This document shows, in pieces, positions 24,273 to 62,858 of a stretch of 64,000 nt of DNA. Position 1 is the first letter of the stretch. Each line of letters begins with the position of its first letter. Source of the stretch: a virus (lineage: Duplodnaviria > Caudoviricetes); IMG/VR virus record IMGVR_UViG_3300028888_000073, positions 1-64,000 of that record; one strand, given 5' to 3'. The notes below the pieces were generated by a model that was given only the letters and a program-made list of their open reading frames with translations, did not search any database and had not been told where the DNA came from. Both the position numbers and the translations under genes were made by a program.

Positions 24273-24461
24273 TTATATTTCTTCTAAGAATCCGTCCTGA
24301 TCCAGACAGTTTTCAAGATAGTCACTAAAAGTTTCTGCTTCTGTTTCACCATCTCTGACCAACTCTCTGTATTCAGCTTTTAATTGTGAAAGTGTTATAA
24401 TGTCTCCGCTTTCCGCATCTCTGAACTTTCGTTCGTCAGACTCTAGTATTCTAAGTTTCAT
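24273..24461 (-). CDS. Small protein with N-terminal MKLRILE motif (putative capsid-internal)
   Basis: Shared N-terminal motif. Confidence 0.6.
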   Translation of the reverse strand: MKLRILESDERKFRDAESGDIITLSQLKAEYRELVRDGETEAETFSDYLENCLDQDGFLEEI

Positions 24462-24479
24462 CACATGACATCTCACCGA

Positions 24480-25130
24480 TTAAACTAGCTGTGAAAGTGT
24501 TGTATTTCTTGCAGTAATTGCACACAGTTCTCCGGTATCGTTCATTTTCAGAAGTGCTCCATTCAGACCGTACACACCTCTTGAAATTCCGACAACTTCA
24601 TAACCTCTTTCCCAAAGTTCATTCGCATCATCGAAAGAATAAGTAGTTACATCAATAGCTTTTCCAGAACGTACCATGTCTCTAAGCTGTTTCTGTGTAT
24701 AAGTCTTTCTTCCAGAACGTGCTTCTCTCATAGAACGTGTTCTTCTGGACACGGACTCATTTCTGCGTTCCTCTTTTTCTTCCTCAACTCTAGCAATAAC
24801 AGGCTTTAGAACCTCTTTGTATTCCATACCATTCTTACTAAGCCATCTCTTAGCCATTTCAGAAGTTACGCGAACGCCAGTGTCGTATCTGTCTGCAACA
24901 TCCTGAAACAGATCAAGCATTGCTTCATATGCTACAGAATAGGACTTTCTACGATTGTTGAACATCTGATCATAGAGTTTCTTTGTGTTCATCAGCCAAA
25001 GTTCAACCTGATCAGAAAGATATACCGGATCAACTTTACCATCAGAATCAGCAAAATCAGCCTGTAGTGCATCATACACCTTTGAACTGTAACCCTTATT
25101 TGCTTCGTTAATATATAGTCTCTTTACCAT
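24480..25130 (-). CDS. Two-domain protein with MVKRLYINE N-terminus and an internal NESVSRR linker
   Basis: Shared motif; Arg-rich linker between two domains. Confidence 0.65.
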   Translation of the reverse strand: MVKRLYINEANKGYSSKVYDALQADFADSDGKVDPVYLSDQVELWLMNTKKLYDQMFNNRRKSYSVAYEAMLDLFQDVADRYDTGVRVTSEMAKRWLSKNGMEYKEVLKPVIARVEEEKEERRNESVSRRTRSMREARSGRKTYTQKQLRDMVRSGKAIDVTTYSFDDANELWERGYEVVGISRGVYGLNGALLKMNDTGELCAITARNTTLSQLV

Positions 25131-25151
25131 CTCTAATCTATCCTTTCTATA

Positions 25152-25472
25152 TTAAATATATCCTAGTTTATCACATGCAAATACAAATGCGGCGGCTTCA
25201 CGATCACTTGAAATTGCGTCATGTCTGTACTTAACAAAATCAGTAACAAGTTGCTTAAACTGACCATCTTTTGCAAGTTCATCATCAAAGAATTCTACAG
25301 CTTCATCATAACCTGCAACATACGCATCAGCATTATAGAGATATTCATATTCATCTCCAAACTCTTGTGCTAGTCGCTGAATATCGAATGAATTAGATTT
25401 TTCATATCTTCGATTGAACGCATCAGAATATCCAAGTGTATCAAAATCACTTTCATTGATTCTTAGTTTCAT
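25152..25472 (-). CDS. Protein with N-terminal MKLRINE motif
   Basis: Shared motif; GAGG RBS. Confidence 0.65.
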   Translation of the reverse strand: MKLRINESDFDTLGYSDAFNRRYEKSNSFDIQRLAQEFGDEYEYLYNADAYVAGYDEAVEFFDDELAKDGQFKQLVTDFVKYRHDAISSDREAAAFVFACDKLGYI

Positions 25473-25572
25473 ATTACTCACACCTCAACAATACTAAATA
25501 ATGTATACACATACGATACACACTATTTAATGTTAGTTAGTGTTATTTTTATTTGATTTTTTCTAATTATTT

Positions 25573-60600: not shown

Positions 60601-61162
60601 AAAGTGATTTTACTTTGACAGGAAGACCATAACCTTTGAATGGTAGAGTTCCTGTAGTTGTTTGTAGTTCATCTTCTCTTCCCCATATAAGTCTATCTTG
60701 ATTATCTCTTACTTCCCATCCATTTTGATATCCGTAGGGTTCGTAGGGGAGAGCTTTTGAACCGAGGTTGATCATGATACTGTCTTTAATTTCGTTTTCA
60801 GTCAATGAGTCATAGCTTGCATGATAGTAGAAAATTACCAAATATGATGCATCATTTCCTGTTGTTATTGTAATTTTTGTTGCTTCATTGTTTGTTATAA
60901 CGCCGTAAAAATCCTCACCGATTGCAGGAATAGTTTTCGTGTAAGCAACTATAAATCGTTCGCTTTGAATTTTCGATATAGTATATGTAGTGTTTGGCAT
61001 ACACGGTGCATATGTCGTTCTTGTATTAGGACTTGGTGATATTATATTACTCACTGATGGATATGCGTTCAAAGATATAATACTTTTGTCAAACAAATTC
61101 TTCCCTTTCATAGGAATACTTACAATATCATGTTCAGCACCATTAACAATGCTTTTAAGCAT
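57653..61162 (-). CDS. Tail fibre/receptor-binding protein with a C-terminal DUF6273/CLec-like DGR target domain
   Basis: Repeated KNL(F/W)...(Y/F)EPY modules; DKVFLLS..E, WWLRTP...GVAPA C-terminus with AAC-rich codons. Confidence 0.8.
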   Translation of the reverse strand: MLKSIVNGAEHDIVSIPMKGKNLFDKSIISLNAYPSVSNIISPSPNTRTTYAPCMPNTTYTISKIQSERFIVAYTKTIPAIGEDFYGVITNNEATKITITTGNDASYLVIFYYHASYDSLTENEIKDSIMINLGSKALPYEPYGYQNGWEVRDNQDRLIWGREDELQTTTGTLPFKGYGLPVKVKSLLGNGVQNGTPTPDAPIVPEFCGVRTENLYFKKIEGANISDSGVITALSGFDLYIAKVEQGIQYTGNGYVYAFFEDEPVIGSISFDSSRVVDSFRDIASPINGFVAVRNPDTIQNAMCNTGQSLLPFEPYGYKISFDNNGKNLWDKGVPKYVYANDYKKYNPDNAIVLKAGTYTISSDGKLPIIQVFDMNHIQLNVDDTITYTSGYYTLWDGLAIGPQSGVFHTITITLLSDYILTFVVSDNLGTYLMLNSGSTALPYSPYLNKTTPIYLGEVPTIRRIKCVDLGTLTYTKTNSGNFGANLGNGKVVNNSQIAPAICSHFKVVSANNYNSTPYSLCASINNQSYISINKTGFEEMTAEEFKSAMSGVLLWYALNIEQTGIVNEPLAKIGDYADELTTIKVNGLSAPLYGIGDYKDILNLSTGVITRKIKKLVLTGEEISINKRTSPENSYSFSIGGNGWPSSTVGYGTSSHFVRNGTVATLIDGEFYVGSTAFSFRLDDCTDVAAFRQYLAAQYAAGTPITVWYVLSEPETETVSIPTGMTGEIEGYLTQISTPTPEHPSIPKWNGKEETGGTYAVTVYTPPEIPTTVGQNKITVDTDLAPYDVTIDGHIRYTYWGKIREDVRSGLAQTKFPVGTILYDNEDETTGRAFQVVGYDKHFDPSLTARGYTHSMTLCQLNLSGPWQFDATEAFLYTTVEMQPGTYKFKIPNYDTAYGGNKTYYFTSTASVPVDSQITLSWAYQQLPSTVTAYAGPNPQTKTTAITGFNALQLSEWVEGESPEAIDLGTIKLSNNDPDSAYGKLNHIHRARYGSNNYYQSGLRQLLNTDLAENNWWHPTTIFDRPYGSRSINGYLRSLNEDFVNVLATPEITHITNNIFEYPSLDGRTFTLNTEYKINTDKVFLLSHTEVGLSATPNIGTLLDYYNTHNTNDDRIKHRIDNGVAYSWWLRTPYPTYAHYFRNCNASGALSNNNADRNLGVAPAHIIQ

Positions 61163-61180
61163 TATATATTCACCTCTCTT

Positions 61181-62224
61181 TTAATCATATATAAAATATA
61201 AAGGTAAATCTTTATTTGTTATTGCATCATACTCAGCTTGTGTTAGTGGAGTAAATAATCTTGATAATAATGCATTTTGTACAGGTTTTGTAGAATTTGT
61301 ATCTAATGCTGAATCTGTAACAACTGAAATATCAATAGTTCCACTTGATGTTATTGGAGAACCTGTTATTGTAACTGATCCATCTGTACTTGTTACTGCA
61401 ACATTAGTTACTGTTCCACTTGGTTCATCGCCGGACGGAATTAAAACCCAAGTTGTGCCATCAGAAATAAAAGTATCTCCGATCTTAGCAGTTTGTTCCG
61501 CGTATGTTCCGTCAGTAATTACTTTATAAGTAAATCCTTTATTCTCATTAGAAGCTGTTGGAAGTGTTGTAATAGTTCCGCCAGTACCAAGACTGCCCTT
61601 AAATATCATAGGCTTTGGAAGATTATCTATTTTTGTATTAACTGTATTTACATTTCCTTGTACTTCATCAATAGCACTTTGAACATTTGTTGCAGAAATA
61701 CCAGAAGATGTTCCATCATAAGAAACGTCAGATGCAGTAGGTGTACTTCCGCCACCACCGCCAGATGTTCCACTACTACTTACGTTAGAATCATCAAACA
61801 ATATCTTGATTGGAAATGTATCAGTGCTAGACCACAACGCACCGTCTTCAATTCCATTAGCAATCAATCCATTGTGAGCATCAACAGCATTACGGTCAAA
61901 CATAGGAGTAACTACTAATTCAAAACTACTAGGAATATTGTATATTGCTAGACTATATGGTTCAATATTCAAATCTGAATCAGTTTCTTTATTAGTTTCT
62001 CTATCAATTGTTTCCATATTTACATTAAAATCCGCATAAACTGTTCCATTATATAGGATTGTAAAATTGATGTTTGGAAGTTCAAATAGCATTTGTTTTG
62101 TCCAAATTTGTGTAAGAATTAATGACAGCGTTCCACAGTTATTACTTGCTGTAATATTTGATGTGATCATGCTGTCTGTCTTACTAATAGATGATAGAAT
62201 TGTTGTCTGTGCCACAAAAATCAA
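61181..62224 (-). CDS. Tail fibre-associated structural protein
   Basis: ASDVSYDGTSSGISATNVQSAIDEV, FKGSLG...GDTFISDGTTW, GTVTNV fibre motifs. Confidence 0.65.
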   Translation of the reverse strand: MIFVAQTTILSSISKTDSMITSNITASNNCGTLSLILTQIWTKQMLFELPNINFTILYNGTVYADFNVNMETIDRETNKETDSDLNIEPYSLAIYNIPSSFELVVTPMFDRNAVDAHNGLIANGIEDGALWSSTDTFPIKILFDDSNVSSSGTSGGGGGSTPTASDVSYDGTSSGISATNVQSAIDEVQGNVNTVNTKIDNLPKPMIFKGSLGTGGTITTLPTASNENKGFTYKVITDGTYAEQTAKIGDTFISDGTTWVLIPSGDEPSGTVTNVAVTSTDGSVTITGSPITSSGTIDISVVTDSALDTNSTKPVQNALLSRLFTPLTQAEYDAITNKDLPLYFIYD

Positions 62225-62228
62225 CTCC

Positions 62229-62858
62229 TTATAATCTTATATGTAGTTTTCTATAGGATTCTGATTTTTCGGGTGATCCGTCATTTTCGGCTTTTCTAAC
62301 ACCGCGCTTTTCCTGCTTATATAAATCCTCTTGATAATCTTGAATCCTGTGCATCATTTCATTTGCACAAACAATGAACGTCTTACCAACCATATCAACT
62401 GTACGTTCTTTCGGTGTCGGATTTGTCTTGTTTGCATCAATTTCAGGATGATCAGTGAATCTGAATTTTACAGCTTTATACAAATCTTCATGCTGTTTAT
62501 AAAATTCAATACCTTGCCTACTAGACGGTTCAAATGTAACGTATATATACATAGACAGCCCGAAGTATGGTGATGGATCAATCTGTATCTCTTTTACGCC
62601 GTTAAGTGCAAGAACCTTACTTCTCCAAGCCTTTACAAACTCTTTAATATCATTCTTGATTTCTATGATTTTAGGATTCTTAGCATACTCTTTTCTCTTT
62701 TCCTTAGTATCTACATACGGTTCTATAAACTGTGTAACATAATTTTTACACTTCTTGATCTTGTCAGTTTTCTTTAGATATTCTAGTAGTGCTTCTGCGA
62801 AACATCTTCCACTAAGTTCATATAGCATATCTTCTCTTATCAGTTTCAATATAATCAC
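62229..62858 (-). CDS. Protein with LKLIRE N-terminal motif
   Basis: Shared motif; KFRFTDH motif. Confidence 0.55.
   Translation of the reverse strand: MIILKLIREDMLYELSGRCFAEALLEYLKKTDKIKKCKNYVTQFIEPYVDTKEKRKEYAKNPKIIEIKNDIKEFVKAWRSKVLALNGVKEIQIDPSPYFGLSMYIYVTFEPSSRQGIEFYKQHEDLYKAVKFRFTDHPEIDANKTNPTPKERTVDMVGKTFIVCANEMMHRIQDYQEDLYKQEKRGVRKAENDGSPEKSESYRKLHIRL

Follow-up and report, generated by a model that had tools for sequence, protein, structure and literature searches.

The peptide that addresses internal proteins of bacteriophage T4 to the capsid reads MKTYQEFIAE. The prohead protease of T4, gp21, cuts behind L/I-x-E, and unrelated internal proteins enter the head by means of an N-terminal targeting sequence of 10 residues (PMC9026906, PMC3012670). 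For internal protein III (IPIII), the first 10 residues are sufficient for this, and an LIE is also present at residue 9 of gp21 (PMC9026906, PMC3012670). A diverged gp21 homologue likewise processes about 19 different head proteins of phiKZ, 201phi2-1 and SPN3US, cleaving behind a Glu, and these phages deliver a large cargo of proteins into the host (PMC9026906). The architecture of polyvalent proteins has likewise been proposed by Iyer et al. to be delivered with the phage DNA (PMC5512222). Here we analysed a window of 64,000 nucleotides from the beginning of a phage contig of 117,949 bp (IMG/VR record IMGVR_UViG_3300028888_000073). The original prediction for this window held that about 20 unrelated genes between positions 24,273 and 62,858 share an N-terminal tag of the type K-L-x-I-N-E, which would load their products into the phage head. 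The pattern is real and holds across a clade of related phages. Our favoured reading is a T4-style propeptide that would direct a large, mosaic group of accessory proteins to the capsid and be cleaved off there; on the sequence comparisons described below, its chances are about even.

Independent gene calling with ribosome-binding-site (RBS) scoring yielded 185 genes, and three whole metagenomic relatives of 200-270 kb (G001, G003, and G004) and Bacillus phage HSE3 were passed through the same pipeline for comparison. Of the 185 genes, 30 have the motif hydrophobic-x-hydrophobic-x-E with its end at residue 4-9, where 6.5 are expected from internal windows used as control. The three relatives have 34, 41, and 43 such genes (13.1, 13.7, and 15.0 expected, respectively), and HSE3 has 9 (6.0 expected). 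The exact form M[KR]LxIxE begins 4 genes of this genome versus 0.008 expected (P = 1e-10); across the four genomes, it begins 4, 8, 9, and 13 genes versus 0.008-0.020 expected (P from 1e-10 to 1e-32), and none in HSE3. Under a looser tag definition, 40 genes are tagged versus 21.6 ± 3.7 in a column shuffle preserving N-terminal composition (z = 4.9). We also built a position matrix with the relatives only as training set, the initiator Met masked, and cross-validation. Its consensus is K-L-[R/H/T]-I-[N/R/K]-E-S, and it assigns at least 10 bits to 7 genes of this genome, compared with 0.1 expected, and to none of HSE3. The tag Glu is residue 7 most often, with the fixed spacing M1-K2-L3-I5-E7. 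In each of the four genomes, a stretch of about 25 kb upstream of the head module holds about half of the strong tags, of which G003 and G004 have 16 each.

The codons of the tag reveal at which level it is conserved. Those of Leu3 (CTT, CTA, TTA, TTG, and CTC) and Ile5 (ATT, ATA, and ATC) match genome usage, and those of Glu7 show the same variation as elsewhere in the genome. Lys2 is encoded by AAA in 32 of 32 cases, which is the usual preference after the start codon. As the synonymous codons at Leu3 and Ile5 vary as they do genome-wide, the constraint acts at the peptide level. Orthologues of tagged genes keep the tag in 11 of 15 cases with altered residues and length, whereas orthologues of untagged genes were scored as tagged in 14 of 98; for many tagged genes there is no orthologue, or the similarity is confined to modules. 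When near-terminal cases and one paralogous family are left out, exact copies in the interior of proteins are about as frequent as expected. The idea of internal "polyprotein" junctions was rejected, for within proteins the tag matrix matches about as often as chance predicts. A perfect internal KLRINE is present at residues 90-96 of the product of 35804-36859 (minus strand), with neither a start codon nor an RBS preceding it; by count it is a chance-level event, and it could be an internal cleavage site.

The window encodes a T4-type head on its minus strand. It comprises a Gp23-type major capsid protein (15621..16976; PF07068, E = 8e-54), a T4-type portal protein (19219..20991; PF07230, 3.4e-51), a 560-aa prohead protease of the Peptidase_S77 family fused to a coiled-coil scaffold (17019..18701; PF03420 at residues 30-167, E = 1.9e-9, above the cut-off), and an acidic 388-aa scaffold-like protein (12597..13763) with five hydrophobic-x-E-S sites. 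The N-terminus of the protease reads MKRVLIE·T...SLKLTE·S (here and below, a raised dot follows the Glu of a tag or site), and the capsid protein contains KLMTE·ATN, both as the original prediction had read them. Among 120 protease homologues, the N-terminus follows M-x-VLIE-TRMN-SL[KR]LNE-S, which holds two tag-like sites, the second near the tag consensus. Capsid Glu63 is invariant across seven relatives in the context hydrophobic-x-E followed by A or S, lies just before the conserved mature core, and is likely the maturation site. The protease-scaffold has nine hydrophobic-x-E-S sites, or 1.6 per 100 aa compared with 0.26 genome-wide, and its 120 homologues average 1.88 per 100 aa. The scaffold-like protein begins MADLNVFQ, where its relatives read MA(D/T)LNVFE. 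A cleavage rule of a hydrophobic P3 and a Glu P1, as suggested by these sequences, fits the capsid site, the scaffold, and the tags alike.

We then inspected the position of the tag with respect to the protein fold. The 147-aa GNAT acetyltransferase (34847..35290, minus strand; GTG start, MKLMINE·S) was compared with 1.84 billion representatives, and nearly all of its best 150 matches align from query residue 10-25 on. The few alignments reaching residues 1-8 are with a near-identical fragment or large multidomain proteins; without those, 148 of the 150 listed matches remain, and their alignments begin at query residue 4 or later, mostly 10-25. In its AlphaFold model (predicted local distance difference test, pLDDT, 92), residues 1-10 have a mean of 50 and the first strand spans residues 19-23, with the tag and about ten further residues predicted to be disordered. 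The 140-aa conserved protein (39327..39749, minus strand; MKLTE·N) has a model with a mean pLDDT of 85, in which residues 1-5 are below 50 and the first strand starts from residue 11. Most of its 97 homologues start with M-(x)-hydrophobic-hydrophobic-K/T/N-E-N/S directly before a conserved YPYEGYFW; about ten are without the pattern (MTIDYPYEG, MNNNINPYEG), and one that is 36% identical has the longer form KKLRLHE·A. According to the two models, the tag is thus a disordered add-on outside the fold. Homologues lacking the tag are found for the GNAT and, in about ten cases, for the 140-aa protein; most of the 97-member family keeps the short pattern. Despite the confident model, a fold search of the 140-aa protein against the PDB gave no match at E <= 0.001. 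The protein has an invariant Cys and an invariant His near its C-terminus.

These features can be assembled into a mechanism. M-K-L-x-I-x-E and its looser forms, which end in hydrophobic-x-Glu within the first 5-10 residues, would constitute a detachable N-terminal propeptide mimicking that of the phage's own gp21-type protease-scaffold protein. The tag would expose Leu, Ile, and Glu (P5, P3, and P1) on one face of an extended strand, and Leu3, Ile5, and Glu7 may thus lie on the same side, as a protease groove would read them. It would dock the protein onto the prohead core during assembly, whereupon the protease would cleave after the tag Glu. The trimmed protein would be retained in the head and enter the next host cell with the DNA.

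Such a system resembles the targeting of IPI, IPII, and IPIII (and Alt) in T4 in several respects. The protease (S77), capsid, and portal families are the same; a short N-terminal peptide with a Met-Lys start and a hydrophobic-x-Glu end is found on unrelated, fast-evolving proteins; and the protease has an N-terminal site of its own, LIE-9 in T4 and VLIE-7 here. Different from T4, the tag has 7 residues (5-10 in loose forms) instead of 10, and beyond the Met-Lys start and the hydrophobic-x-Glu end it bears no sequence likeness to the T4 peptide. The four genomes have 4-13 strictly and up to about 40 loosely tagged genes each, compared with 3-4 in T4. Aside from this, the cargo consists mostly of acidic enzymes and ORFans (open reading frames without known relatives), protease and scaffold form a single polypeptide, and the host is presumably a rumen Firmicute. 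How large the repertoire is depends on the definition of the tag, with 4 strict and about 17-18 loose tags in the window; it would be much larger than that of T4, as the original prediction put it, only if all tagged proteins are packaged. The head proteins of phiKZ, 201phi2-1, and SPN3US differ in that their cleavage motif is S/A-x-E and their long propeptides show no sequence conservation, with no short common N-terminal tag described.

The tagged genes of the window with Pfam or PHROG matches encode a zeta-toxin-like kinase, an S-adenosylmethionine (SAM) lyase, a GNAT, a SprT-like zincin, and a weakly matching Dps-like DNA binder; the rest are ORFans. A second tagged GNAT is located at 70825-71373 of the contig. 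In the relatives, the tagged cargo includes a SAM-lyase/DUF3293 protein (G003), three BspA-type leucine-rich repeat (LRR) proteins, and a methyltransferase. A tagged Mom match in the relatives was discarded as a false positive, its "tag" falling inside the family domain, and a PDB sequence search with the zeta-toxin-like kinase gave no match. Among its best 150 matches, the GNAT of 34847-35290 is closest to domains in proteins of 1100-2400 aa (P0222-P0236), in which papain-fold glutamine deamidase, transglutaminase-like, and P-loop domains are present as well. MSKLSTEKRNQL is the start of several of these large proteins. In many of the small GNAT homologues, the domain is preceded by hydrophobic-x-E-S and then a K-S-x-L-D-K-x-F-K-K-K linker, possibly a second kind of junction.

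The domain kinds of the cargo and the proposed delivery with DNA are the same as those of polyvalent and MuF-fused effectors (Iyer et al. 2017, PMC5512222). In contrast to these, each domain here has its own gene and its own tag, and there is no MuF domain. Every tagged protein with a Pfam match has one catalytic domain, whereas a polyvalent protein is defined by at least two disparate effector domains. Overall, the cargo is rich in ORFans, and its mosaic proteins have exchanged modules between genomes. It is conceivable, with chances slightly below even, that these phages have an "unbundled" polyvalent system, in which rumen and gut jumbo phages load dozens of shuffled single proteins via a minimal 7-residue tag copied from the protease propeptide. 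We hold with similar reserve that such cargo would take in the SAM lyase, GNATs, kinase, zincin protease, DNA-binding proteins, and the BspA-type LRR proteins of the relatives, and would be the largest addressed set known for a T4-type head. If true, T4-style addressing of proteins to the capsid would not be a T-even speciality but a general, evolvable mode of delivery in distant T4-type phages of anaerobic Firmicutes, and single-domain tagged genes would be linked to the giant polyvalent proteins of other phages. The tag would then flag, by sequence alone, phage genes acting in the first seconds of infection, many of them likely counter-defence factors, and it would be short enough to serve as an engineering handle.

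Several observations weigh against packaging. The clade has no virion proteome, N-terminal sequence, or cultured relative, and a search for virion proteomics of the nearest cultured phages found none in the SP-15 paper, only a genome announcement for LIS04, and nothing for GXN1. HSE3 possesses the same head type without enrichment of the tag, hence head type alone does not predict the tag. Some tags have only 5 residues (MKLTE, MIILE), which is shorter than any proven targeting sequence, and the tagged proteins are acidic on average (pI, isoelectric point, 5.1-6.1). Membrane-like segments were detected in 0 of 63 tagged and 58 of 1125 other proteins, a difference that is not significant (P = 0.07). 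Lastly, the tagged genes of 24273-31636 are promoter-distal members of sigma-70-type units closed by terminators, as described below.

Genome-wide, there are about 21 near-identical promoters of the form TTGACA-17-TG-TATACT with conserved flanks. The element is about 45 nt long and nearly identical among copies, AAACTACTTGACATTT...AAATATGTTATACTATATTTGTAAGAG, and most copies seen have a preceding terminator. Four of them (24175-24203, 27287-27315, 29352-29380, and 32953-32981, minus strand) bound the units with the tagged genes of 24273-31636, and terminators at 29411, 27370, and 24258 (minus strand) close promoter units. The genes that end at 46704, 49128, 49444, and 54600 have further copies upstream of them, and more are spread over the remainder of the contig (64-117 kb). 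The promoter is common to G001 and G003, and the regular expression found only one copy in G004. The set looks like host sigma-70/sigma-A early promoters, and none of the structural genes has one. Promoter mapping bore out the claim that the first genes behind these promoters are untagged with the exception of the one at 54600. The tagged genes of 24273-31636 are probably transcribed early by the host polymerase, at least in part, because they lie inside units starting at host sigma-70-type promoters. The portable head-loading tag of the original prediction is partly supported: all sequence-level tests that were run fit it (protease, cleavage rule, add-on, and clade conservation), but the tagged genes at 24-31 kb belong to units with host-type promoters. 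A late promoter was also sought, but none could be defined. In intergenic regions lacking early promoters, only AT-rich words were enriched among k-mers; words of the ACATTA type, which precede some tagged and structural genes, are not specific; and TATAAAT, which precedes one structural gene and 35368-35676, is too common for use.

The promoters bring up the main rival explanation, a non-capsid N-terminal signal. The tag would then be a degron or docking strand that times or localises early accessory proteins, and its reader could be an AAA+ protease adaptor, a chaperone, or another cytoplasmic Glu-specific protease of host or phage. It would account for the many tagged genes in host-type-promoter units, for a tag that is strictly N-terminal with fixed M1-K2-L3-I5-E7 spacing, and for the same head type without a tag in HSE3. 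We nevertheless consider such a signal, and likewise these readers, unlikely. The match of the tags to the P3/P1 rule seen at the sites in capsid and scaffold and to the protease propeptide would be left unexplained, and so would the clustering beside the head module; moreover, no candidate reader protein was found.

The codon data bear on a second rival, which regards the tag as a functionless remnant of cassette-style gene exchange, with a common joint composed of the RBS and the first codons, together with a general bias towards AAA and AT-rich codons behind the start. The invariable AAA at Lys2, the mosaic tagged proteins with their inter-genome module swaps, and three MIILE genes with the common nucleotide start ATGATCATA(C/T)TAGA agree with such a joint. 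A common joint of this sort is improbable, however, given that the codons of Leu3, Ile5, and Glu7 vary as genome-wide, and that orthologues alter both the length and the sequence of the tag yet retain hydrophobic-x-E. It also leaves Glu at P1 unexplained, and the similarly AT-rich HSE3 shows nothing of the kind.

A recognition leader for a modifying enzyme, for instance the phage radical-SAM protein, is very improbable and was rejected, as the enzyme is not beside tagged genes across genomes: its intein-split gene lies 2-5 kb upstream of the MIILE cluster at 70-73 kb, but the only orthologue is in G001, where the nearest strong tag is about 20 kb off, G003 and G004 have their 16 strong tags each without the enzyme, and tagged genes are dispersed over the genome. 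The split radical-SAM gene itself is flanked by Hint/intein splicing domains (L001:10327-13292, contig 74.3-77.3 kb), and the unsplit orthologue of G001 (33592-34500) aligns to both its N- and C-terminal pieces.

Returning to the tagged genes under the capsid-targeting reading, translation of the 19 predicted starts together with the independent gene calls reproduced 17 tagged N-termini in 24273-62858. The count of about 20 is thus slightly reduced, since two tags rest on doubtful GTG starts. The one at 32317 (VVNVLLE) overlaps the upstream gene and has no RBS, with ATG 32263 as the better start, and the one at 41040 (VYPRYKRIYE) requires GTG, albeit with a plausible RBS. Five starts move 6-12 nt downstream, to an ATG or TTG that has a good RBS in every case (31642 to 31636, 37726 to 37714, 39322 to 39313, 39761 to 39749, and 62858 to 62849). 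BLASTP found the tagged proteins to be mutually unrelated except for two paralogous pairs, in line with the original prediction.

All tagged genes of the window are on the minus strand. The first three encode a 62-aa ORFan (24273..24461; strict tag MKLRILE·S, 17.2 bits with the relative-trained matrix), a 216-aa protein (24480..25130; MVKRLYINE·A) whose orthologues have MITIKE·V and MIKLIKE·V before a conserved NKGY, and a 106-aa protein (25152..25472; strict tag MKLRINE·S, 19.3 bits). They are followed by the 294-aa zeta-toxin-like P-loop kinase (29450..30334; MIRIINE·D), with a Pfam match from residue 24, a 166-aa protein (30450..30950; MKIMIKE·G) supported by translation and matrix scan, and the 223-aa SAM lyase family protein (30965..31636; MIKLTVE·N), which starts at ATG 31636. 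The 538-aa mosaic protein (33057..34673; MIKLIE·K) has a C-terminal part in common with other tagged proteins of the relatives. Beyond the GNAT described above are a 102-aa protein (35368..35676; MVKREFNE·A), seen in translation and orthologue comparison, the 279-aa SprT-like metallopeptidase with zinc ribbons (36875..37714; MLMILE·E, ATG 37714), a 200-aa protein (37927..38529; strict tag MKLNINE·K, from translation and matrix scan), and a 203-aa protein (38702..39313; MKLIYE·S, ATG 39313). Adjacent to the 140-aa protein, the 306-aa protein with the weak Dps-like/DNA-binding match (39754..40674; MIEIRNE·D) has the orthologous tags MIKLRCE·D and MKLIFE·D. The 101-aa protein (42394..42699; MIPLLE·F) has orthologues with MKLLYE·Y, MITLNE·Y, and MKLSINE·N. 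The 163-aa protein (54109..54600; MVLRINE·D) is the only tagged gene product of the window encoded directly behind a conserved sigma-70-type promoter, and the 206-aa protein (62229..62849; TTG start, MKLIRE·D) has an orthologue with MIHIINE·D. Outside 24273-62858, an 82-aa protein (23112..23360; MISLVE·I) is encoded directly upstream of the terminase. Beyond the window, a second tag cluster is located at 70.2-72.7 kb (MRLFES, three MIILE, and MISLVNE), and other tags are scattered.

The window shows a near-total minus-strand gene orientation and a GC content of about 35%. Megablast against cultured phages found no close match at the DNA level, and a related-locus search with the 538-aa tagged protein (33057..34673) as query gave no match. 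The nearest cultured phages, with a capsid identity of only about 40%, are Bacillus HSE3 and SP-15, Listeria LIS04, and Streptococcus GXN1. In metagenomes, 416 homologues of the protease make up a large clade. The 118-kb contig is probably partial, about half of the genome, because a protease 98% identical to the product of 17019..18701 sits on a 218,520-bp ENA contig and the IMG/VR relatives span 198-272 kb. The capsid gene is unbroken in the window and split in 2-3 pieces in several IMG/VR relatives (L013, L015, L017, and L018). Open reading frames between the pieces begin MYGYIY, read as GIY-YIG-like, or MIKC..CGQ, which suggests intron-borne homing endonucleases. Among the other genes of the window, 46908-48098 (minus strand) encodes a 396-aa protein with a PemK/MazF-like toxin domain at residues 34-131 (E = 1.4e-7), about three times the normal size of MazF.

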